35,580 nucleotides of DNA, taken from the UHGV virus genome UHGV-2170436. One strand, written 5' to 3'. Source of the DNA: a virus. The notes beneath the pieces were generated by a model. It had not been told where the DNA came from, searched no databases, and saw nothing but the letters and a program-made list of their open reading frames with translations. Position 1 is the stretch's first letter. The number at the start of each line of letters is the position of its first letter. Of this stretch, positions 1,452 through 35,580 are shown one piece after another. A program made the position numbers and the translations under genes.

Positions 1452-1487
1452 GCCCCTATCGTTATAATACGCGGTAGGGGCGTTTTT
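1452..1487 (+). terminator. Rho-independent terminator candidate
   Basis: Stem gcccct/aggggc with 18-nt loop followed by gtttttgttt, directly after the 1024..1437 gene. Confidence 0.5.
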
Positions 1488-1500
1488 GTTTGGAAATGGT

Positions 1501-3180
1501 ATGAAAACTAAACTGTATTCGTATATTCGCTTCTCGTCTATGCGTCAGAATGATGGTTCGAGTTATGAACGACAAATCAGGATGGCTAGAGAGATTGCGG
1601 TAAAGTATGACCTTGAACTGGTAAATGATTATCAGGATCTGGGTGTATCTGCGTTTAAGGGTGCTAACTCCAAAACAGGGGCGCTATCTCGTTTCCTTGA
1701 TGCAATAGGTAGATCCGTTCCTGTTGGTAGCTGGCTATTCATCGAAAACTTGGACCGTTTATCCCGTGCCGATATTGTCAGTGCGCAGGAGTTATTCCTT
1801 TCAATCATCCGTAGGGGGATAACCATTGTTACTGGCATGGATAACAAGATCTACTCGCTGGATACTGTTACCGCTAACCCGATGGACCTGATGTTCTCCA
1901 TCCTTTTATTCATCCGTGGTAATGAGGAAAGCCAGACTAAGCGCAATCGTACTAACTCAAGCGCACTGATTAAGATTAAAGCTCATCAAGAAAATCCACA
2001 AAATCCGGCTGTTGCAATCGAGGAAATTGGAAAGAATATGTGGTGGACTGATACCACATCTGGTTATGTGCTTCCTCATCCGGTCTTCTTCCCTATTGTT
2101 CAGGAAGTTGTGGAATTACGCAGGAATGGACGGTCAACCGCCGAGATACTGGATCACCTTAACGCGACATACACACCACCACCAGCCGCAAGTCACAAGA
2201 GGCATTCAAACTGGTCACGGGCAATGATTGAAAGGTTGTTCCATACCCGCGCTTTGATTGGTATCAAGGAAATCTCTGTAGATGGCGTTAAGTATGAGTT
2301 AAAGGATTATTATCCTCGTGTGCTAGATGACGCTGAGTTTTATCACCTTAAGAAAAGCATTGGTGTTAGAGCATGTAACTTTGGAGACAAAGAAGAAGTT
2401 AAACCTATTCCCTTGCTTAGTGGTGTTGGTCTATTGAAATGTGAACATTGCGGTTCCGCTATGGTTAAGGTGAAAGGAACAAACAGACGGCCTAACCAAT
2501 ATCGTTATTCATGCGATGCAATGCGCTCTAGTCGTATTGAATGTGTGCATACAAACTGGAGTTTTCGCGGCGACCAATTAGAGAAAGCTGTATTGCAATT
2601 GCTGGCTGATAAAATCTGGATTGCTGAAGATAAGGCTAATCCGGTTCCGGCTTTGAAAGTACAGATTGATGAAATATCACGCAAGATTGATAACCTGATT
2701 ACCCTTTCTGCTATGACAGGAGCAACGAAGGAGCTAGCCGATCAGATTACTACCCTCAATAGCGAGCGTGAAACACTCTACAATCAAATTAAGATGGCAG
2801 AAGAGGAAATGTATTCTGTTGACTCTCAAGGCTGGGAGAAGCTCGCAGAATTTGATTTAGAAGATGTTTACAACGAGGATCGCATTAAGGTCCGGTTTAA
2901 GATTAAGCAAGCTCTAAAACGGATCGGGTGTAGCAGGATTGACAAGTACAAAAACTTGTTTGTACTGGAATACATCGATGGCAAGACCCAGAGAGTTGTA
3001 ATAGAAAATTCAAGAGGACCGAGGAAAGGCCGGATCTTCGTTGATTTGAAGACTATCAATGATAGGCAGATTCTGGAGAGTAACGGGCTTGTTCTGCATC
3101 CATGTTTAGACATGCTGACAGATAAGAACTGGAAACCAGAAGAAGAAATACCAGGTCCATTACAAGAATTTGGAATTTAA
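1501..3180 (+). CDS. large serine recombinase (putative integrase)
   Basis: N-terminal resolvase catalytic motifs (YIRFSSMRQ with nucleophile Ser; ENLDRLSR), central recombinase domain, Cys-rich zinc ribbon (CEHCGS...YSCDAMRSSRIECVH) and coiled coil. ORF track starts at 1486; Met at 1501 gives the canonical MK..Y.R.S N-terminus. Confidence 0.9.
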   Translation: MKTKLYSYIRFSSMRQNDGSSYERQIRMAREIAVKYDLELVNDYQDLGVSAFKGANSKTGALSRFLDAIGRSVPVGSWLFIENLDRLSRADIVSAQELFLSIIRRGITIVTGMDNKIYSLDTVTANPMDLMFSILLFIRGNEESQTKRNRTNSSALIKIKAHQENPQNPAVAIEEIGKNMWWTDTTSGYVLPHPVFFPIVQEVVELRRNGRSTAEILDHLNATYTPPPAASHKRHSNWSRAMIERLFHTRALIGIKEISVDGVKYELKDYYPRVLDDAEFYHLKKSIGVRACNFGDKEEVKPIPLLSGVGLLKCEHCGSAMVKVKGTNRRPNQYRYSCDAMRSSRIECVHTNWSFRGDQLEKAVLQLLADKIWIAEDKANPVPALKVQIDEISRKIDNLITLSAMTGATKELADQITTLNSERETLYNQIKMAEEEMYSVDSQGWEKLAEFDLEDVYNEDRIKVRFKIKQALKRIGCSRIDKYKNLFVLEYIDGKTQRVVIENSRGPRKGRIFVDLKTINDRQILESNGLVLHPCLDMLTDKNWKPEEEIPGPLQEFGI

Positions 3181-25216: not shown

Positions 25217-27121
25217 TTAGAACGATGTTACCCAGCTACGGCCTCTATTTGGGCGTCTGGCGATGTTTTGACGTTGTGGTCGTGTGATTGGCTTAGTTTC
25301 TTCGATTTGCTCGTCAGATTGCGTTTCAGGAGCTTTTACGGGTTCTTCTGGTTCACGGTTCAAACTATCTTTGATGGCTTCGAGTTTTTCCCATGACATT
25401 TTATTGAGTACATGGCGAGAAGCAGCATAGGAATAAGCCAGGCAGTCGAGAGCCTCGTTTCGTTGCTGACCAACTTTTACCCAACGTGTGGTATTACCCT
25501 GCCGTTTCAACTGTTCAGAAAGCAATTGCTCGCAATAGTCATCAGGAACGTCACCAATCTGGAAGACAGTATGAGGATCGCCATCTCTCAAGTTCCGGTT
25601 AATCATTTCACGGATCATCGTCTTAAGGTTGTTTACGCCCAGAATTTTGAGAGTAAAACCGCCCGTTCTTGTGTCCTTAGCCGGAAGGATTGGAGCATCA
25701 GCATTACTTGCGCCTTTAATGGCGCATAGGTTTTGCCACCTAGTGCAAAAACGGTAGATCACGTTTGTAGCTCGTCCGTTCGATGAGTCCACGAAAGCAG
25801 ATAGCATCGGGATTCGTTCACCGGATCGGGTATAGAATTTCGCTTTCAGGAAGTTATAAAGCTGGTCATATGCTGGTGATTCGTGGCGTTCGCAGTTCAC
25901 ATCATAGAATGATCGGTGATCAACTACGCATATCCCCTTACGAGAGATACCCAGCAAGGTAGATTCCAGACGGTCTTTTTGCTGGTCAACTCCACCTACC
26001 AGAGCCAGTACATCATCAGGAATATTGTCTAGGCTAATATCAGTTTTCAGCGTTTCCAGTTCGTCGGCTGTGCGATCTTCGTTAAGATCATCGAAGGTTT
26101 CACCGAGGACTGTATTGTAGAACGTTGCTAGTGACATATTCGCGTAGCTATCAGCAAAGTCCACCACACACGCACGGATAGAACTAAACGGAGACATAAG
26201 GCGGTTAGCATGAAAACCGATTACTTCCGCATTTGGTTCTGTAGCAATCCATTCACCTTGAGCAACAGCACGTAGGCGATCCCCTTCTGTCCAATCAGTT
26301 TCACATGACGGGCAACGATAAACGGCAGTATCTGGATTCGGCAGTGATTTACAGTTAATCGTATGCCAATCAAAGAAAACTCTACTCCATTCCATTACGT
26401 GCTTGTGTCCGCAATGCTGGCAAACGACATGATATTTTCTCTTATCCGAGAGTTCCCATTGTTGGTTAATCGCCCCATCACGAGCGGTTGGAGTGGAAGC
26501 AATTACGATCCTTGCATCTTCCCCGAAAGTGGTTGCGCGTTGTTCCGCTAGCTGGATCGGGTTCCCTTCGTCTGACTCATCAGCCGCATCAACTTCATCA
26601 AGAATAATCAAAGGGAGTGTTTTACCGCGAAGATGTGACGGACTATTCAACGACATGAAATACATAAACGATCCGTTACGAAGCTGAATAATCGATGAGT
26701 TGTTAACGGCATTGCGATCTGATTTGTCGGTGATCATCGCCTTTAATTCTGGTGTTGCCTCTAATACTGGCTTCACCTTACCAGCGATCCAGCTATTCAA
26801 CTCGCGGACATTCGATTGCAACACCCCGATATTAGTAGGGTTACTCGCGATCCGATGGAAGATAATTCCGTTAAGAATCATGGTCTTACCCAACTGTGCC
26901 GAACATTTAAACACAATTTTTCTACGGTCTTCGGTGATCGCGTCCATCATTCCACGTTGGAAGGGATGCAATTTAATTAGCGATCCGGCTTTAACACCAT
27001 CGGTCGCAACTACATTAGCCTCTACCCATTCGCTAGGTTTCATGGTTTTAGGTGGACGAATTGCAGCAGAGATATTTTTGAGAATCTTTTTTAATTTTGC
27101 CTTATTAGAAATCAGTTTCAT
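25217..27121 (-). CDS. terminase large subunit (lambda gpA-like)
   Basis: Walker A CSAQLGKT, Walker B LPLIILDEVD, Cys-rich nuclease region; GAGGGT RBS before ATG at 27121. Confidence 0.85.
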   Translation of the reverse strand: MKLISNKAKLKKILKNISAAIRPPKTMKPSEWVEANVVATDGVKAGSLIKLHPFQRGMMDAITEDRRKIVFKCSAQLGKTMILNGIIFHRIASNPTNIGVLQSNVRELNSWIAGKVKPVLEATPELKAMITDKSDRNAVNNSSIIQLRNGSFMYFMSLNSPSHLRGKTLPLIILDEVDAADESDEGNPIQLAEQRATTFGEDARIVIASTPTARDGAINQQWELSDKRKYHVVCQHCGHKHVMEWSRVFFDWHTINCKSLPNPDTAVYRCPSCETDWTEGDRLRAVAQGEWIATEPNAEVIGFHANRLMSPFSSIRACVVDFADSYANMSLATFYNTVLGETFDDLNEDRTADELETLKTDISLDNIPDDVLALVGGVDQQKDRLESTLLGISRKGICVVDHRSFYDVNCERHESPAYDQLYNFLKAKFYTRSGERIPMLSAFVDSSNGRATNVIYRFCTRWQNLCAIKGASNADAPILPAKDTRTGGFTLKILGVNNLKTMIREMINRNLRDGDPHTVFQIGDVPDDYCEQLLSEQLKRQGNTTRWVKVGQQRNEALDCLAYSYAASRHVLNKMSWEKLEAIKDSLNREPEEPVKAPETQSDEQIEETKPITRPQRQNIARRPNRGRSWVTSF

Positions 27122-27207
27122 GTAATTACCCTCATTACGAAATATGAAGGTATTTATTAAATTGTTGATATTTTGATAAATACGGTATTAAGATTTAAGG
27201 AGGGTGT

Positions 27208-27801
27208 ATGCTAATTAATCAGCAAGAAAGAGATGAATTAGCCTTGTCTTGTACCGATCATGAATATCGTTTGCCAGTAAAACATAAGCACTTAAAGACC
27301 GATTACACTACATCCGGTTTTAGTCGCGAAGAAGCGAAAGAGATTTTAATCGAGTTGTATCGCGATCATGGGTATACCGATATTCACAACTTCTTTAAGA
27401 AGCATAGAACATCACATACAGAGTTTCGGAGAGTCCGAGATTGGTTTGATTTTGATATCAAGCGTTATTATCGCATTGATGACGGTCCTATCTATCGGTT
27501 GCAGTGGAAGTCGATCCGAGAAGTGTTGAAACAGAAGAGATTGAATCACGCTATTACACGCTATCGTAACGAGGCTTTCAAGAAAGGCTATGGTGATACA
27601 AGGGAACTATTCGTTGAACTCGCTAACGTGAAGTACAGCCACTATTACAACGATCCTAAATCCTTCTTTGAAGTGCTTCGCAAGGTTGATATAAGTCGGG
27701 GTACATACTATTCACGGTTGAAGAAGTACGGGATTAAGGCAGAGTTCTTTATGTCGGTTGACGATGGAGAACTTTTTCCGATAAAATGTAAGTCACTCTA
27801 A
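27208..27801 (+). CDS. DNA-binding protein with duplicated resolvase-type HTH-like modules
   Basis: Two internal segments ending in a recognition-helix-like motif (ISRGTYYSRLKKYGIK), paralogous to 27834..28067 and 31103..31285; AAGGAGGG RBS. Confidence 0.45.
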   Translation: MLINQQERDELALSCTDHEYRLPVKHKHLKTDYTTSGFSREEAKEILIELYRDHGYTDIHNFFKKHRTSHTEFRRVRDWFDFDIKRYYRIDDGPIYRLQWKSIREVLKQKRLNHAITRYRNEAFKKGYGDTRELFVELANVKYSHYYNDPKSFFEVLRKVDISRGTYYSRLKKYGIKAEFFMSVDDGELFPIKCKSL

Positions 27802-27833
27802 ATAAAAGTGAACATTCACTTTAATTTGGAGAA

Positions 27834-28067
27834 ATGACTATGACTACTAAAGCTACTCGCGGTCGTCCTGCCCGTTTTAACGCTGAACAAATGGCTGATA
27901 TTGCCTACGCTTATTATACAGCGGATCGTGGTAAGGAAGCGAAAGAACAGATTCTTAGTGAACATGGGATTTCAATTGCCCAATTCTATAAGAATATGAA
28001 GAAGTTAGACATTAAATTCTATGTTCAGATCGGTGATGGTCAGATCGTAGAAGCAACAGGTTTTTGA
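27834..28067 (+). CDS. small HTH DNA-binding protein (excisionase/RDF or regulator candidate)
   Basis: TRGRPARF...GISIAQFYKNMKKLDIK resembles resolvase-type HTH; 77 aa. Confidence 0.45.
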   Translation: MTMTTKATRGRPARFNAEQMADIAYAYYTADRGKEAKEQILSEHGISIAQFYKNMKKLDIKFYVQIGDGQIVEATGF

Positions 28068-28082
28068 GTTTTGATTCTCTTT

Positions 28083-28106
28083 GCCACTCTTCGGAGTGGC
28101 TTTTTT
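28083..28106 (+). terminator. Rho-independent terminator
   Basis: gccactc-ttcg-gagtggc followed by tttttt. Confidence 0.7.
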
Positions 28107-28215
28107 GTATCTATAGGGTTGTCCAAAACGCCATCGGCGAGTTGGTGGAAGATGGCGCGAAAAGTCGCGTGATGTAGGTATGAAAAAGCCCCGCACGAGG
28201 CGAGGCTAAAAATTA

Positions 28216-29031
28216 TTACAGTCCGAAGACTTCCAGTGATCCAACATTCTGGCGGAGACGTTCAGCCGCTTTATTTTGAATCAGAATAGTGTTGTTCGGC
28301 TTAGGAAGATTCAGAGTTGCTTTTTGTTCTTCTTCCAGAACACCCAATTCAACCAGCACCGGAAGCACATCAACAGTAAACTCAAGCTGGTAGTGAGCAT
28401 TCATGCGGCAGAAAGACAGAGAAGAGTCATTAGCAACATACCCACACGGCTTGTTATTTTCATCATAGACGCGCTCAATGTATCCAGCAGTACGTAAGGC
28501 CGTCAGTGCTTCTTTAACCTTCGTAGCGCCCTTTTTAGCGCCTAACAGACGTGTCATTGAATGGCTGTCTACAGACTTACGAACATGAAGTTCAATCAGC
28601 TTTTTATTTTCACGAGTTTTCTTTAACGCCAGTTCGATCCAGTCGGTTTCTTCAAAGTCTGCATACGGGTTAACGGCTAAACGTTCCTGACGCAGTTTTT
28701 CATTTTCTTCTTTCAGTCGTTTCCATTCCTGAATAACGATCATTCGACGCTTAACATCGTAACCAGTGACAAGAGTCAGCGTCATTTCTTCGTCAAGGTG
28801 ATATTCGGTTTGTTCACGTCCACACTGATCAAGATAGGTGCGCTCAAAACTGAGCACATCTAATTCCAGAGCATCGAGCATGGATTTAATATCACGTTTA
28901 ACGTTTTTATGCTCTTTTCCGGTAAATTCAGCGATCTGACGAGAAGACATGGTCAGCGGTTTGGTGTTATCAACAACCAGAGACACGGAAGCAGGTTTAA
29001 TAGCAGTATTCATAGTAGTAACAGTATTCAT
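28216..29031 (-). CDS. Rha-family phage regulatory protein / antirepressor-like
   Basis: N-terminal SSRQIAEFTGKEHKNVKRDIKSMLD matches the Rha-type signature (..IAE.FGKRH.NVLRDI..L). Confidence 0.6.
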   Translation of the reverse strand: MNTVTTMNTAIKPASVSLVVDNTKPLTMSSRQIAEFTGKEHKNVKRDIKSMLDALELDVLSFERTYLDQCGREQTEYHLDEEMTLTLVTGYDVKRRMIVIQEWKRLKEENEKLRQERLAVNPYADFEETDWIELALKKTRENKKLIELHVRKSVDSHSMTRLLGAKKGATKVKEALTALRTAGYIERVYDENNKPCGYVANDSSLSFCRMNAHYQLEFTVDVLPVLVELGVLEEEQKATLNLPKPNNTILIQNKAAERLRQNVGSLEVFGL

Positions 29032-29122
29032 AGTAAAAATTCCCCTTAAACGGTTTAGTGATTTGGTCCTCCTAGTTCCGGCAGCATCACCGGAACAATT
29101 TTATTTATAAGAAGTTTTTATC

Positions 29123-29269
29123 TCATTTAGATTCAGCAATCGCGCGATCAATTTCTTCTTGAATGCGACGCTGGCGTTCATGGAAGTCAACCATTGAGAA
29201 ATTCAGGTTTGGGGTCCACGGTTTGCGGTTCGGGGTTTTACGTCCATCAATTTTCTTAGTAGTGTTCAT
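29123..29269 (-). CDS. small basic protein (48 aa)
   Basis: ATG at 29269 with GAGGA RBS; MNTTKKIDGRKTPNRKPW...; immediately upstream of the Rha-like gene. Confidence 0.35.
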   Translation of the reverse strand: MNTTKKIDGRKTPNRKPWTPNLNFSMVDFHERQRRIQEEIDRAIAESK

Positions 29270-29327
29270 AATTAACATCCTCTTTACAAATCTAGGTCAA
29301 ATAGGATCAAAGTTGTCAAGTGCGATA

Positions 29328-29356
29328 ATCATAAAAAAGTCAGAAATTTTTGTCAA
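29328..29356 (-). promoter_or_regulatory. sigma70-type promoter (TTGACA - 17 bp - TATGAT) with overlapping inverted repeat
   Basis: Minus-strand TTGACA at 29356-29351 and TATGAT at 29333-29328; -35 lies in the palindrome ttgtcaa-N7-ttgacaa (29350-29370). Confidence 0.55.
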
Positions 29357-29392
29357 TGCCCCCTTGACAAGACGCCAAGGGGTTGACCTAAC

Positions 29393-29860
29393 TTACAGCA
29401 TATCTAAGCCTTCGTCGTAACCGTAGAAGCCATTCTGAGAAGAAAAACAGATTGGTGCGTAGTCGTCGTCATCTTCGTCTTGTTCATCTTCTTCTGGGGC
29501 TTCCTGAGCGGTTTCTTTGCCGTAGTTAAACATTGCTTCATCCAGTTCATAGACAGTAACGAAGCTACCCAGGTCAATGTCACCGGAACGGACTTCAAAC
29601 GGAAGATCATCACGAACAATAATTGCTGGTAGATCCTGGTACTTTAAGCGTTCTTCATCGGTGAAGACGTTAACAACAATGGTCGGCTTCTTATTACGGT
29701 AAAACGCATACCATGCACTAGAGAAATGGGATTCATCAGAGTTGAAAAGGATGTTATAACCACGTTCACGGAACATCTTCATTAACTTGTCATTGTGGAA
29801 GCTATCAGAATCCAGACCCAGAAGGATAAAAGGAGTAGTGGTAGTCATCTTGTGGTTCAT
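29393..29860 (-). CDS. hypothetical protein with strongly acidic C-terminal tail
   Basis: ...EAPEEDEQDEDDDDYAPICF; transcribed divergently from the early control region. Confidence 0.45.
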   Translation of the reverse strand: MNHKMTTTTPFILLGLDSDSFHNDKLMKMFRERGYNILFNSDESHFSSAWYAFYRNKKPTIVVNVFTDEERLKYQDLPAIIVRDDLPFEVRSGDIDLGSFVTVYELDEAMFNYGKETAQEAPEEDEQDEDDDDYAPICFSSQNGFYGYDEGLDML

Positions 29861-30060
29861 AGTGGAAATTCTCTAAAAGAAAGTGAATCAATCTAATATT
29901 ATTTATAAAGAGAAAATTCTTGTTATTATGAAAGGTGATTGTATTCAGTCGGGCAAAGCCCTCCTTCATAGATTTTGAATAAATCATCATCAAAACGAAG
30001 AAGTATCTTTAGAATATAAGAATCTTTCTTTTGGAGAAATAATAATCAGGAAGCAATTTG

Positions 30061-30089
30061 GCAACCGAAGGTTGCAATCCCGAAGGGAT
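30061..30089 (+). repeat. Two adjacent GAA-triloop hairpins
   Basis: gcaacc-gaa-ggttgc (30061-30075) and atccc-gaa-gggat (30077-30089). Confidence 0.4.
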
Positions 30090-30436
30090 AACCAATACCT
30101 TTCTAGAAAGTGATTGTTACTCACTTCGTTCGTTTACTAGAATCAGTTAGTAACTAGTATTAAATCCCTTTCTGAGAAAATCCTTTCAAAAGCGAGTGAA
30201 CGCCGTAGGTGTGAACGTGAGCGAAGCGAACTATCCAATCCCTTTCGAATCCTGCTTGCAGGTCTTAGAAGGTGTTGATGGGCGCTTCGCGCACGGCTAC
30301 GCCGTATTCTTTTTGCGAGATCTTTCTTGAACGTAGTGAGAGAAAACGAGCAAAAAGGAGAACGTTAGTTCGAATTTTATATTCTATGGTCTGTGTGGTG
30401 AAATGTCTTTCAAGATCATACACTTATGAGATTGAA

Positions 30437-30534
30437 GTGTAGGGTTAGTGTAGGTGTGTAGGTGTTATAGTGTAGGTTTACTGGCTAGTGTAGTGTAGGC
30501 CAATCCCTTTAAAGCGTAGGTTTGTAGTGTAGGT
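30437..30534 (+). repeat. Iteron-like direct repeat array (GTGTAGG core, at least 6 exact copies plus variants)
   Basis: GTGTAGG at 30437, 30448, 30456, 30470, 30493, 30527; variants at 30488 and 30514; four copies of the 10-mer TAGTGTAGGT spaced about 22-34 bp apart. Confidence 0.7.
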
Positions 30535-30730
30535 TTTTCATCAAAAATTTTGATAGAAAATTCTTGTATATTATTTAACCAGAAAATCACCAAAAACCGC
30601 TGTAAATGCATGATTTAAAAAGAATCATCAAAAGGTCGCCGTGCTATAATAGGTTATAAAGGTTGATAATCGTTATCCGCCATTTTCACACAAAAATTTT
30701 GATAGTCATTTCTCGCTTAGATCAAGTGTA

Positions 30731-30759
30731 TTGACAACTGTCAAGGATTATTTTATACT
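30731..30759 (+). promoter_or_regulatory. Near-consensus sigma70 promoter (TTGACA - 17 bp - TATACT) with operator-like palindrome
   Basis: TTGACA 30731-30736, 17-nt spacer, TATACT 30754-30759; -35 is part of the near-palindrome TTGACAACTGTCAA. Confidence 0.65.
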
Positions 30760-31102
30760 TTTTCTCGTTGGTAGGGGTTGAAATTTTCGAAACAATCCAC
30801 ATATTGATGATACGCAAGATTTTTTCGTGTATAAATACATGCATGAAAATGATTGTTCACTTCTGAAAATCCCCTGATTCACTGTTAATTCATACAGCAC
30901 TGGCTAAACATACAGTGCTTATTCGATTGAATAATGTACGAATTGATTAATTATTAATCTTCTCTTTAGCAATTCGTGCTCCCACTGATCGGATATACAG
31001 TGGTTTTACAGGGTTTTTCGAAAAACATTTTATAAATAGAATTGTTCAGAGCGAAAAGCTCTTTTTTAAGAAATCATTATTCCAGATTTAGGAGGATATA
31101 AG

Positions 31103-31285
31103 ATGGCACGACCTGTTAAGTTCACTCGTGAAATCGTTTTAGAAATGGCAAAGCGTTATTTTGAACTGACACCTGATGTAGTGATGGGTGAATGGTTTAA
31201 AGGTGAAGGTATTGATCAATCAACCTTCCACAAACTCTTAAAGAAGTATGACATTAAAGTAAAGATTACCGCCGAGGTCTGGTAA
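31103..31285 (+). CDS. small HTH DNA-binding protein (paralog of 27834..28067)
   Basis: MARPVKFTREIV...GIDQSTFHKLLKKYDIK; GGAGG RBS. Confidence 0.5.
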   Translation: MARPVKFTREIVLEMAKRYFELTPDVVMGEWFKGEGIDQSTFHKLLKKYDIKVKITAEVW

Positions 31286-31328
31286 TAACCTTTCACTGAG
31301 AATTATATGATGGCTTTAAAAATAAAAA

Positions 31329-31357
31329 AGCCTCCCTGTTGGCGCAAGGAGGCTTTT
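31329..31357 (+). terminator. Rho-independent terminator
   Basis: agcctcc-N12-ggaggct followed by tttt. Confidence 0.65.
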
Positions 31358-31401
31358 GATATGAACAATTAAACTAACACAGAGCATTCAGGAGTATTTA
31401 T

Positions 31402-32397
31402 ATGAAAAATTCTAAGCGCATTACCTTCAACATGTTTATTAAATCCAACGGCAAACTGAACATCACTGTCATGGAAGGTAAAGCAAGCAAACAAGACAAA
31501 TCCTTTGAAGTAGTATCAGGTAAGACTCTGACCGAAATGCGTCAAAATGCTGGCATCAAAGACGGTGCTGAATGGCAGATCACCAACCGTTTCGACAAAC
31601 GTCACGTTAAACCTACACTGGTAGAAGGTGAATCCGTTTATTGCTTCGCTCGTGCTGTTAAAGCTGATGAAACTTACTATCTGGCTGTTGTTAAAACGGC
31701 TTCCGGCTTCCGTGCTGTAATGCATCACAAGAGCAAACGTAACGAATACGGCGTAGAGACCCAGGAAGTCGCAAAACGCTTCCGTACTGTTGCTACCGAA
31801 TCCACTGTAAAGGATGTTTCTGGTACTGTTAACACCGCTAAAGGCGGTTCCTTCTACAACCACGCATTACAGGTTACTTCCTCCTTCTTCTGCAAAAAAG
31901 AAGCACAGAAAGAAGTTTCTCCGGTAGTAGTTGAAGAAGTTAAAGAAGAAGTTGCAGTGGTTGAATATTCCGAAGTTGAAGCACTGAAAGCACGCATCGC
32001 TGAACTGGAAGCTGAAAACGCATCTCTGAAAGCTGAACTGGCAGCACAGGAAACCACTTTCGAAGTAGCAGCGGTTGAAGTTGAAGCAGTTGAAGAAAAA
32101 TCCATTGATGAAGAACTGGAAGAACTCCTTAACTATCGCTGGGGTGTTGTTGCAGAAGTAGAACAAGAAGTTGCTCCGGTAGTTGTTCCGGTTGAAGTTG
32201 AAGAAGAATCCGCACCTGTTACTAACTTTGAATCCCTGCGCAATAACTTTATGGCTAAATTCAAAACCACTTGGGAAGATACCGAAGAAGAACAAGAAGA
32301 GATTGAAGTAAACGAAGACGAGATCCGCGAAGCACAGATGGCACTGCATGACGCTATCTACGACACCAACTACAGCGCCTACGCATACGCAGCTTAA
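31402..32397 (+). CDS. hypothetical early protein with acidic, Val/Glu-rich coiled-coil C-terminal half
   Basis: AGGAG RBS; 331 aa; no motif recognised. Confidence 0.45.
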   Translation: MKNSKRITFNMFIKSNGKLNITVMEGKASKQDKSFEVVSGKTLTEMRQNAGIKDGAEWQITNRFDKRHVKPTLVEGESVYCFARAVKADETYYLAVVKTASGFRAVMHHKSKRNEYGVETQEVAKRFRTVATESTVKDVSGTVNTAKGGSFYNHALQVTSSFFCKKEAQKEVSPVVVEEVKEEVAVVEYSEVEALKARIAELEAENASLKAELAAQETTFEVAAVEVEAVEEKSIDEELEELLNYRWGVVAEVEQEVAPVVVPVEVEEESAPVTNFESLRNNFMAKFKTTWEDTEEEQEEIEVNEDEIREAQMALHDAIYDTNYSAYAYAA

Positions 32398-32412
32398 TAG
32401 AGAGGTGAATTT

Positions 32413-32655
32413 ATGATGAATCAAAACAAAGAATTTCTGGGTAATCTGATGTTAGAAATTACCAAAATGAAAGAAAGAATGGTAGCGATGGAATCAGAGA
32501 TTAAAACACTTAAAGCTGATAATAAGGCGTTGAGAAAGTCCTTAAAGCTGATTGATGAGACTAATGCGGTTATGATGGATCATGTATTCCCTGAGTGGCG
32601 AAATGAAACTAAACCTACACAACATAAGAAACTTACACTTCGAATTGTTGCATAA
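32413..32655 (+). CDS. hypothetical coiled-coil protein
   Basis: GAGGTGA RBS; 80 aa. Confidence 0.4.
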   Translation: MMNQNKEFLGNLMLEITKMKERMVAMESEIKTLKADNKALRKSLKLIDETNAVMMDHVFPEWRNETKPTQHKKLTLRIVA

Positions 32656-32925
32656 AAAAAGGGACTTCGAAGAGTCCCTAGTAAGTTTAGGTTAGGTTTG
32701 CACAACAAAGATGAGGTTATAATGAACATAATGCCACATTATTCTTTAAAGCCAGAAAAATAACCGCCCCGAAGGGCGGGAGGATTAACACTCAATCTAT
32801 ACTTGTTATGTTTTTATGTTGTATGATCACTGACTATGAAAACACTGTTTTAATGGCTTTTAATCGGGAATCCTCAAAGAAGATCCCCTATTAATAACCA
32901 TAAGGAGAAAAGGCAGATTACACTA

Positions 32926-33099
32926 TTATTTAGTATCCTTTTTACAGCAACTAAAAAGAATAAACAAAAAGAAGCATACCCAGCCGTAAGGCGTACCGAT
33001 TAGAAATTTGAAAAACACCACCAGCGATATAAAAATCAATTTAATGCCAGCGACGATAGTCAAAAACAGCAGAGTAGCAAAGTAGACAAAAAGATCCAT
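32926..33099 (-). CDS. small hydrophobic membrane protein (57 aa)
   Basis: ATG at 33099 with AGAGGA RBS; MDLFVYFATLLFLTIVAGIKLIFISLVVFFKFLIG...; below ORF-track cutoff. Confidence 0.35.
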   Translation of the reverse strand: MDLFVYFATLLFLTIVAGIKLIFISLVVFFKFLIGTPYGWVCFFLFILFSCCKKDTK

Positions 33100-33350
33100 A
33101 GATAATCCTCTTTGAAAACGACCATCATCTATAGTTCAATTCATCGATTTAATTAATGATACTTGAAAGCGTTACACAAAGTAGAAATGCCAATATGTGC
33201 CAGTGAATATACGATAGTTAATCCTACAGCCAGATAAATCAAAAATTCAACCATAGGTAAATCCTCAAATAAGAAAAAGGTTAGCGGGGGATGTTCTCCC
33301 CCGTAGACGTTGACCATCAACATCTTTCATACATTTATTTATAACGCGTT

Positions 33351-33905
33351 TTAAGACACATCAAATTCATCGTCTTCTTCTGGTTCTTGTTCCGGTTCAT
33401 CCATTAATGGTAATTCTTCTTCCTCGTCTTCTCCCAAATCAGCATTTTCGAACAAGTCCCCTACTTCATTTAAACGACGCTCGATGATCTCCCTTAGCTT
33501 ATTCTTCAATGTTTTCTGGTCATTGGCAGATTCGAGAATTTCTAGGGCATCGATCGTACAAATCTGCAAAATAGTCTGTTTCACTTTCCCGCAGTATTCC
33601 GCTAGTTCCTGTTCTACATAACCGACAGGAATCAGGAGATTCATTTTTTCCTGGTTCTCTCGTTCGGCTGCATCTGCCAAAGCACGTTCACGGCGTAATT
33701 TCTCTACATCGATTTGTTCTTTGATAGAAGTTTGTTTAAGCGGGTTGATAATATTTTTCAAGACCCATTCTGTTCCTTCTTTGGCTGGCACGCGGCGGGT
33801 ATTGGTGTTAAATGGCAATCCCCTTTCTATCCATCGCTTAGCGCCACCATTCAATGAATAGCCGTATAAACGGGAAATTTCTGTAAGGGTTAATTCTTCT
33901 TTCAT
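33351..33905 (-). CDS. terminase small subunit (lambda Nu1-like)
   Basis: N-terminal winged-HTH LTLTEISRLYGYSLNGGAKRWIERGLPF and following EKLRRERALADAAE parallel Nu1 (KKQLADIFGASIRTIQNWQEQGMPV; EKLRREVEELRQASE) as I recall it; acidic C-terminus. Confidence 0.55.
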   Translation of the reverse strand: MKEELTLTEISRLYGYSLNGGAKRWIERGLPFNTNTRRVPAKEGTEWVLKNIINPLKQTSIKEQIDVEKLRRERALADAAERENQEKMNLLIPVGYVEQELAEYCGKVKQTILQICTIDALEILESANDQKTLKNKLREIIERRLNEVGDLFENADLGEDEEEELPLMDEPEQEPEEDDEFDVS

Positions 33906-34263
33906 TGGTTATCCTCCATTAAATTTGCGTAATTTTATTTATTGGTTTTACGCACAATCTAAGCGCCTAAATCGCATTCTAACGAAGGGAAAGATCCAGT
34001 AATGGTAAGGGCTAGGAAGTGGGTTAATAGTCGCGTAGCGACCGCGCTAGGACTGCACTGATCACGTTTTAAAATCTCACACGCGTATCAAATACCGGGG
34101 TGCCGAAAACTCCCTTTATCTCATCCGTGGAACAGTACCTTTTTAATTTGTCAAGCATTAATTTCTTAATTTAATTACTAAATCTCATCCCAATAATTGA
34201 AAAAATATCAAAAATCAATAAAGTAAGCATCTAAAAGTCAGTCCATACCAAAAGAGGTATAAA

Positions 34264-35058
34264 ATGAAAAACATTATCGCTGCTATCGTGCTTTCTGCTA
34301 CTGCTTTCGGTGCTGATGCTGCGTCCTTTGATTGCACTAAGGCTACTACCAAATCAGAGAAGTTTATTTGTGCTAATGAGTCAATCTCCGCACTGGATTC
34401 TAAACTTCATGAAGTATATGTTAAGGCTGTTAAGATTGACCCGTCGCTTAAACAAGAGCAACGCAACTGGAATAAAACTGTTCGTGATACAATGATCAAT
34501 ATCGGGCAGATTCAGCCACTGGAGGCTGTATACAACGCTCAAATCCAAAACTTGATGAACGTATTATCTAAAGAAGAAACCGCGTCAGAAAGCGATTCAG
34601 AGACTTCTGCGAAGGTTGAAGAAGAACAACCGAAGGCAGTAGAAACTCTAAAAACCAAAGAGAAACAAGTTGTTCTGGAAAAGTCCCCAAATAGCAACTT
34701 CGTATATATTTGTCCGAAAGTAGTTAAAATAACCACAATTGACGGACTGAGTGTAGAAGATCGTGATATAGTGAAAGAAAACACAAAAATTGTAATCGAT
34801 AAAAACAAAGACAAGGCAAAACTTCTAATTTCTGGAACGATGCACCCCCCAGTTGTAGTGGAAATGAATATTGACGCTGATGGATTCATGTCAAAAACTA
34901 CTAAAACTGGTGTAGAGTTATACGCACAACACGGAAAAACATATTCCGGTGATAAGATGGTTGATGATGTAAGAACACTGGACTATCATCATATTTATGT
35001 TGACAACCGTACCGGAAAGGAAATCGAATGGAAATATTCTTGTGTAGAGAAAAAATGA
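34264..35058 (+). CDS. secreted DUF1311 (LprI-like N-terminal domain) protein, phage moron candidate
   Basis: Signal peptide MKNIIAAIVLSATAFGADA; motif FDCTKATTKSEKFICANESISALDSKL..Y matches the DUF1311 Cys-x-Ala...Glu...Cys...Leu-Asp pattern. Confidence 0.55.
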   Translation: MKNIIAAIVLSATAFGADAASFDCTKATTKSEKFICANESISALDSKLHEVYVKAVKIDPSLKQEQRNWNKTVRDTMINIGQIQPLEAVYNAQIQNLMNVLSKEETASESDSETSAKVEEEQPKAVETLKTKEKQVVLEKSPNSNFVYICPKVVKITTIDGLSVEDRDIVKENTKIVIDKNKDKAKLLISGTMHPPVVVEMNIDADGFMSKTTKTGVELYAQHGKTYSGDKMVDDVRTLDYHHIYVDNRTGKEIEWKYSCVEKK

Positions 35059-35256
35059 TAGAGGCGACATAATACAATCAGAGATAGTTAAACGCCCGAA
35101 TATTACTAGTTAGTTCCTAAGTTCATTTCTTATGGTGTTAATTGCGACTCAGTTGCTATAGAATTCTTCTAATTCATTGATTCTATAGCCCTGTCCTTGT
35201 GATGGGGCTTTTTATTGCAAAATTTTTAGTTATTTTGGGTTGACTACATTCGGGTT

Positions 35257-35559
35257 GCCAATTCGCCTGGCTAACTCTTGCTGAGTGATTTCTGACTGTA
35301 AAAAAGCATTTAACAGCAATACCTTAGAGGCGACGCTCAAAGGTACTTCAATAAAGTGATCATGACTATTTAATGGCGAAGGTAACGGGATAAGCTCGTT
35401 ATCTTCAAAATAAAAATCAAATGCGGTCAGTAAAGCATCTTTTGCCGCTTCCATCGCTTCAGCGACAGTTTCGCCCTGCGTCAACGCTTCAGGGATATCC
35501 ACAAAAGAAACCATATAACCGCCTTCCGGCGCGGGTGTAAGAGTGACGGGATAACGCAT
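35257..35559 (-). pseudogene. hicB: hicB antitoxin gene, 3'-truncated (HTH domain lost)
   Basis: MRYPVTLTPAPEGGYMVSFVDIPEALTQGETVAEAMEAAKDAL fits the HicB N-terminal signature; the HTH begins at ...ITQQELARRIG and is replaced by NPNVVNPK-stop encoded by AT-rich DNA. Confidence 0.65.
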
Positions 35560-35580
35560 AATTTCGACTGTCTCTCGCAT

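Follow-up and report, generated by a model that had tools for sequence, protein, structure and literature searches.

Separated small and large terminase genes in a widespread prophage lineage with a lambda-type terminase

The virus genome UHGV-2170436, a stretch of 35,580 nucleotides that we analysed at its full length and refer to as the window, raises the question of why the genes for the small (TerS) and large (TerL) subunits of a phage terminase should stand 6,229 bp apart (27122-33350), and whether this distance marks an accident in one copy or the layout of a lineage. Our preferred answer, to which we assign a probability of roughly 0.7, is that the window holds a complete temperate siphovirus prophage of ~35 kb integrated in hicB, with a lambda-type terminase, in which a cos-terS cassette is detached from terL and the split is ancestral. 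The features on which this answer depends are the following.

33351-33905, minus strand: terS, 184 amino acids (aa), Nu1-family small terminase subunit
25217-27121, minus strand: terL, 634 aa, GpA-type large terminase, first gene of the late operon
33906-34156, minus strand: non-coding block, proposed cos region (cosN-like core and cosB-like sites) with the terS promoter and ribosome-binding site
34091-34113, minus strand: candidate cos core, GAGTTTTCGGCACCCCGGTATTT, GC-rich ~12 nt flanked by direct GRTNTTT repeats
33926-31, 33949-54, 34032-37 and 34082-87: four TACGCR hexamers, candidate TerS-binding (R-like) sites or operator

We found that the 184-aa protein is a Nu1-like terminase small subunit, as the initial annotation had proposed, on the basis of a match to PHROG 57 'terminase small subunit' (E=4.3e-12, residues 2-169) and of an alignment to lambda Nu1. 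Using a profile built from 20 close TerS homologues, hhalign placed residues 5-92 against Nu1 3-110 with 95% probability (E=3e-8), and this alignment, IDVEKLRRERALADAAE against IEYERHRLTRAQADAQE, spans the winged helix-turn-helix (wHTH) and the next helix. When run directly against three solved TerS DNA-binding domains, the same profile gave weak matches only. Upon searching 1.8 billion representatives with it we retrieved 217 proteins, mostly of 150-200 aa, and among 71 that were sampled, 36 match Pfam Phage_Nu1 (best 9e-28) and 15 match DUF1441. The AlphaFold2 model of TerS (pLDDT 72) has an N-terminal wHTH, long helices (41-153) and a disordered acidic tail ending in EFDVS. The structural module contained no other candidate for the small subunit, and the 197-aa and 77-aa neighbours of terL are dissimilar to the Nu1 profile. 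The large subunit, TerL, carries the GpA_ATPase (PF05876, 8e-61, 206 bits) and GpA_nuclease (PF20454, 4e-47, 161 bits) domains, both exceeding the Pfam thresholds, and matches PHROG 15 with E=3.5e-144. It opens the late operon 6 kb from the small subunit, just as annotated initially, and the intergenic region upstream of it measures only 86 bp. The two genes are not co-transcribed neighbours, as terminators and opposite-strand units intervene, and this is likewise the case in all relatives.

Upon comparing the locus with its relatives, we observe the same order and orientation in 28 of 28 related loci from E. coli, Salmonella and Proteus, with gaps of 5.6-8.6 kb. For example, the TerS homologue in Salmonella (54% identity) lies 6.5 kb and the one in Proteus columbae (53% identity) 5.6 kb upstream of a GpA terL, with the units in the same order, and the split is present in 24 of the 24 loci from IMG/VR (gaps ~6.1-8.6 kb). 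The same holds for all seven distant loci, in which TerS is 33-41% and TerL 45-52% identical to the proteins in the window and terL is found 4.8-6.1 kb downstream of terS; here the order is terS, a reverse-strand unit ending in a 55-aa paralogue of a 60-aa gene of the interval, a stretch of ~1.2 kb free of open reading frames (ORFs), and terL. Because every relative examined has the split with the same internal architecture, we regard it as ancestral to the lineage. As a local event in this element, the insertion or rearrangement that had been suggested initially is thus contradicted by a layout shared down to 33% TerS and 45% TerL identity. An artefact of prophage permutation was also ruled out, since att has both genes on one side and the other arc is ~29 kb. 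The segments of the interval are mosaic among relatives, with identities from 30% to 100%; segment mosaicism is usual in temperate phages.

The initial annotation had offered as its other suggestion a packaging site in 33906-34263, and this receives indirect support, short of proof, from a conserved non-coding block and from contigs that start at a core within it. The block of ~250 bp (33906-34156) is kept in 22 distinct upstream sequences whatever cargo gene lies beyond; the DNA beyond is wholly different between loci with different cargo, and the block starts at the same point. Its motif order throughout the lineage is AAAGGTACT, followed by a GC-rich ~12 nt between direct GRTNTTT repeats and then by TTTCAAAA..GGTT.AGTTA, and this order is kept even at 35% TerS identity. 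The candidate core lies 186-208 nt upstream of the terS ATG, a distance that matches the geometry of lambda, where cosN is ~190 nt from Nu1. Between the core and terS we found four TACGCR hexamers against about 0.25 expected by our own arithmetic, and the pair proximal to the gene forms TGCGTAA-N-TTACGCA, which is kept in the E. coli, Salmonella and L031/L055 alleles. A 13-bp palindrome, GTCGCTACGCGAC, ~135 nt upstream of terS was also considered as cosN and rejected, being kept in E. coli only and having no contig end at its position.

The core had been selected before short contigs were examined. Eight short metagenomic contigs carry terS and start at most 300 nt upstream of it, and three of these, from three runs and with three terS alleles, start at most 3 nt from the homologous core position, namely L048 (SRR14653397) with TTTCAGCCGCCC..., L059 (DRR827181) with AGTTTTTCCGGGCGC... 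and L060 (SRR31254101) with GTTTTTCCGGGCGC.... Additionally, the MEGAHIT contig L049 has a chimeric junction to foreign high-GC DNA exactly 12 nt beyond that position, contig L046 folds back about 20 nt beyond it, and the other three start at -38, -239 and -275. Three of eight starts at a pre-specified 7-nt site have, by our own binomial arithmetic, p about 7e-4, and a random coincidence of three of eight anywhere in the 300 nt has p about 0.03. The pattern is what one would expect of linear virion DNA ending at cos, although contig ends of this kind are not proof. Among the readings considered, a packaging site upstream of terS has the best support, and by itself we hold it to be reasonably probable; the terS gene at one edge of the prophage probably forms a separate cassette together with the site for recognition and cutting.

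In the mechanism that we propose by analogy with lambda, TerS would bind to repeats in the ~180 bp that separate the GC-rich core (34091-34113) from the terS start codon, and the acidic tail at its C-terminus would dock on the conserved basic N-terminus of TerL, which would nick the core to generate cohesive ends. Packaging would proceed in the direction terS, early region, terL, heads, tails, lysis, integrase and attP, with the compact regulatory and replication region of the phage predicted to sit between the cos-terS cassette and terL. The tail of TerS, ...EEDDEFDVS, is constant, with F181 invariant, and two TerL alleles that are 58% identical overall (61% at the nucleotide level) are identical in their first 15 residues, MKLISNKAKLKKIL, which are basic; more distant TerLs retain the same basic N-terminal pattern. 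In lambda the C-terminus of Nu1 binds the N-terminus of gpA, and the constant tail and shared N-terminus would therefore fit such a partnership; this co-conservation is only suggestive. The shared N-terminus is also a recombination junction, because in the comparison with L009, which has the same upstream module, nucleotide identity drops from ~100% to ~50% about 50 nt into terL (window 27070-27121). With the junction at this position, the putative TerS-docking N-terminus would travel with the upstream module, and one TerS allele is indeed paired with TerL alleles only 58% identical. More tentatively, the cos-terS unit could be an exchangeable cassette of packaging specificity that recombines apart from terL, in a functional, uncultured temperate lineage whose cohesive ends would be 12 nt long, as in lambda, and which has been dismissed as incomplete and sometimes carries mcr-1; we see this wider proposal as possible, with doubt prevailing.

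Several observations weigh against a functional prophage with a lambda-type terminase and a packaging site upstream of terS. TerS itself has no match in Pfam, where the PF07471 Phage_Nu1 threshold is not reached, or in NCBIfam, and fold searches with its model gave nothing significant, only generic wHTH of MerR, Xis or BldC type or helical bundles. The contig-start evidence consists of three short, probably low-coverage contigs of unconfirmed sample type. Other contigs run straight through the core site, as is expected for integrated copies, these contigs being lysogen-derived; no right-end contig was found, and when IMG/VR and JGI metagenomes were scanned by pattern for the motif left of the core, every contig returned was of prophage or lysogen origin and ran through the site. 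Furthermore, the block 33906-34156 has no canonical IHF site, and the identical TerL N-terminus may reflect recombination history and not selection for TerS docking. The phage collection holds no induced phage of the lineage, the best TerL match being 43%, and the hicB-adjacent element has been termed incomplete and apparently non-functional (PMC7700713).

Some of these points feature in other explanations, which differ in how well they account for the locus as a whole. If the block were promoter and operator only, with cos or pac elsewhere (near terL or inside terS), the contig starts would be assembly artefacts. Like a regulated promoter, the block has an ATAAATA box and an inverted repeat ~30-55 nt before the terS ATG, the end at the core is backed by three contigs only, and junctions that vary between strains break de Bruijn assemblies, an example being L035 at the block edge; near terL, distant relatives carry an HNH/EndoVII-like gene, a possible alternative location for cos or pac. 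The ATAAATA box occurs in the leader of terS and in that of terL; with 13 copies in the window against 10.7 expected, it shows no enrichment and is a weak hint only. However, the break site lies inside the conserved block, ~40 nt from the variable edge, and is homologous in three divergent alleles without common 31-mers, conservation is deepest at the distal GC-rich core and not in the promoter-proximal part, and upstream of terL there are only those 86 bp of intergenic DNA, which together make this explanation unlikely. We consider it more doubtful still that the 184-aa protein is a Nu1-fold DNA-binding regulator, either an excisionase or directionality factor of the serine integrase or an Rpp-like redirector, with TerL working alone or with an unrecognised partner. 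Its own transcription unit by the att/integrase side, the missing curated-family matches and an N-terminal domain resembling MerR, Xis and BldC folds and RppC of phage-inducible chromosomal islands (PICIs) would suit such a regulator, whereas the full-length PHROG match, a Nu1 alignment that also reaches past the HTH, and a size, coiled-coil region and conserved tail typical of TerS would not. Moreover, the protein is always accompanied by a GpA TerL and a full structural module, DNA ends, in the form of contig starts, lie ~200 nt upstream of its gene, and the 197-aa and 77-aa proteins beside terL do not take its place as Nu1-like candidates.

The remaining two explanations concern the history of the element. 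It could be a decaying, non-functional remnant whose gene order reflects the loss of genes once between or around the terminase genes, and in this respect it has no repressor or replication protein recognisable by profile, PHASTER scored a related copy as 'incomplete' (PMC7700713), and individual copies carry insertion sequence (IS) elements or mcr-1 insertions. Nevertheless, the terS cassette, intact ORFs and the same architecture are found in 63 of 5,426 complete E. coli genomes and in other genera (50-80% protein identity), and such maintenance across genera indicates purifying selection; in addition, the structural, lysis and integration modules are complete and the contig starts suggest linear virion DNA, so that we judge decay very improbable. 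A recent insertion or rearrangement in this prophage that parted a once-adjacent terS-terL pair could appeal to adjacency being the rule in lambda-like phages and to the strong mosaicism of the interval, but it is scarcely credible when order, orientation and spacing are the same in all 28 close and all 7 distant loci from at least three genera, and when the flanks of the interval, within the window, show no IS element, repeat or att-like scar.

Turning to the interval itself, we find four transcription units bounded by terminator-like hairpins, with the following content.

33153-33323 and 32926-33099, minus strand: small hydrophobic ORFs of 56 aa and 57 aa, co-oriented with terS in one unit
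32660-32779, minus strand: pair of terminator-like hairpins closing the terS unit, the lower of which also ends the convergent plus-strand unit
31103-32655, plus strand: unit encoding a 60-aa helical protein (31103-31285), a 331-aa acidic coiled-coil protein (31402-32397) and an 80-aa coiled-coil protein (32413-32655)
29861-31102, 1.24 kb: ORF-free stretch with iterons and a promoter
28216-29860, minus strand: unit encoding a 155-aa acidic protein (29393-29860), a 51-aa protein (29123-29278) and a Rha-family regulator (28216-29031)
27208-28067, plus strand: pair divergent from terL, a 197-aa protein and its 77-aa paralogue

The terminator that had been assigned to terS is present at 32764-32779 on the minus strand, but it follows terS plus two small ORFs and does not come directly after the gene; the 56-aa and 57-aa ORFs are accessory, being missing or replaced in many relatives. 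The plus-strand unit at 31103-32655 keeps its position and orientation in relatives. The ORF-free stretch contains eight copies of WGYGTAGG on the same strand within 98 bp (30436-30533) and a strong, near-consensus sigma-70-like promoter at 30731-30759 on the plus strand, and a 26-nt imperfect palindrome was also observed in it at 30081-30128. Its centre (30195-30540) is allele-specific, an ORF-free stretch occurs at the same place in distant relatives, and 29861-31102 gave no Rfam match, nor did any other part of the window. It is presumed to be a control or origin region, and its possible roles include those of an origin, of an array of immunity operators or of an undescribed RNA. The Rha regulator matches Pfam Phage_pRha (PF09669, 1e-13) as well as PHROG anti-repressor families. 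Regarding the inventory given for the interval initially, the Rha regulator, the iterons and the small ORFs, which are visibly hydrophobic, were all found, but the plus-strand genes labelled as HTH have no HTH profile match; as they also lack a significant fold match, the label is plausible and unproven. By its position and the Rha gene, the interval would be an early region.

The 77-aa and 60-aa proteins are paralogues with 33% identity, and the 197-aa protein carries the same domain in two copies, each modelled as three helices and a hairpin. We note in these three proteins the pattern GRPxxF ... G-I-x-x-x-x-F/Y-x-x-L/M-KK-x-x-IK. This orphan domain belongs to no Pfam family, and the 197-aa model gave nothing significant in Foldseek. 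In the distant relatives (L039-L045) the divergent 197-aa/77-aa pair is absent, and a 152-aa protein is encoded directly before terL instead. Its CxxC...DHNHxTGxxRGLLHxxCN motif looks, by eye, endonuclease VII/HNH-like, and its place next to terL recalls how HNH and terminase genes are paired in other cos phages.

When the window is placed in its chromosomal setting, it is essentially one prophage of 35.6 kb. E. coli HCP5S3_I4 holds the same element between two hicB fragments, with 96.8% identity over the 10.4 kb compared, and the C-terminal remnant of hicB, adjoining ydcR, is found there just past window position 1. The outer parts of the element are as follows.

35230-35580, minus strand: N-terminal part of hicB, the element boundary
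34264-35058, plus strand: LprI-like cargo gene between the cos-terS cassette and the hicB attachment junction, variable among relatives
1486-3180, plus strand: large serine recombinase
minus strand: late operon with terL first, then the head-tail joining protein, portal, protease-capsid fusion, tail genes and M15 endolysin

The terS gene had been placed next to the element boundary; it does lie at that edge, but the hicB fragment is 1.3 kb off, with the LprI-like gene between. Integration by the large serine recombinase, for which the 3' part of hicB is the target, leaves the antitoxin gene truncated, and related copies were also seen near ycdX/ghrA instead of hicB. Over its first ~370 nt (34264-34634) the LprI-like gene is 95-98% identical to a hypothetical gene that T-even phages of the RB49/Phi1 type (Krischvirus) carry in 59 phage records, and this looks like a recent exchange of genes between virulent phages and a temperate prophage. 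All contigs retrieved for the LprI gene were long and chromosomal.

The only earlier description of the element is that of an 'incomplete phage-like region' with chromosomal mcr-1, located between lysN and hicB; there it is reported as the commonest chromosomal context of mcr-1 and termed non-functional (PMC7700713). The name that PHASTER attached to it in that paper (PMC7700713), Vibrio phage henriette 12B8, refers to an unrelated 107 kb phage. Two relatives in this prophage family, H41 (NZ_CP041628) and H44 (NZ_CP044443), have ISApl1-mcr-1 insertions. A tblastn search of TerS against 50,697 phage records gave no match, and there is no cultured relative to serve as synteny reference. The best TerL relative, Escherichia phage DCP80 (L008, PQ671644.1) at 43% identity, was not used, since its 141 kb record is chimeric-looking and is probably a chimeric assembly. 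The record, which is filed under Straboviridae, consists of ~25 kb of siphovirus-type genes including a GpA TerL, followed by T4-like genes (motA, rIIA), and it has no Nu1-like gene near terL.

We also compared the layout with known packaging systems. As in lambda, the small subunit is of the Nu1 family, with a wHTH followed by helices, the large subunit is of the GpA family, and cutting is predicted at a GC-rich core that precedes the ATG of the small-subunit gene by ~200 nt, with repeats between; the allele core TTTCAGCCGCCC has the reverse complement GGGCGGCTGAAA, the first 7 nt of which are common with the GGGCGGCGACCT of lambda. In contrast to lambda, in which Nu1 and A overlap in one late transcript, terS and terL are here 6.2 kb apart in separate units with a regulatory region between, the core is inverted relative to the small-subunit gene, there is no IHF consensus, and TerS remains under the Pfam Phage_Nu1 threshold. 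P2 and 186 are cos phages with non-adjacent M (small) and P (large) genes in different transcription units, but in P2 these are ~2 kb apart and divergent, with only the scaffold and capsid genes and no early genes between, and the protein families differ. In the T7 group, gp18 and gp19 are parted by the unrelated lysis genes 18.5/18.7, whereas the distance is ~0.5 kb within one late transcript, the ends are direct terminal repeats and not cos, and the protein families are unrelated. The Rpp proteins of PICIs share an N-terminal wHTH like the TerS DNA-binding domain, and our TerS family profile matches RppC (PDB 6hlk/6hn7) at 1e-8; however, Rpp is satellite-borne, without terL or structural genes, and binds the TerS of a helper, while the element in the window has its own TerL, portal, capsid, tail and lysis genes and no second TerS. 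We know of no lambda-type system with a whole regulatory region between its terminase genes, and a literature search for lambda-type terminase genes parted by a regulatory region found none.

Overall, the split layout represents a new way of organising a well-known packaging system, in a prophage lineage that is widespread and uncharacterised. In annotation pipelines TerS stays 'hypothetical' and the prophage receives an incomplete score, in part since terS is expected beside terL, and recognising the split would correct the annotation in about 1% of E. coli genomes and in relatives from Salmonella, Proteus and metagenomes. The prediction of cos is concrete and testable, and a natural lambda-type terminase with subunits made from separate units offers a model for the control of subunit stoichiometry and timing. 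Finally, some copies carry mcr-1, and the formation of particles by this prophage would therefore bear on the mobility of a resistance gene.

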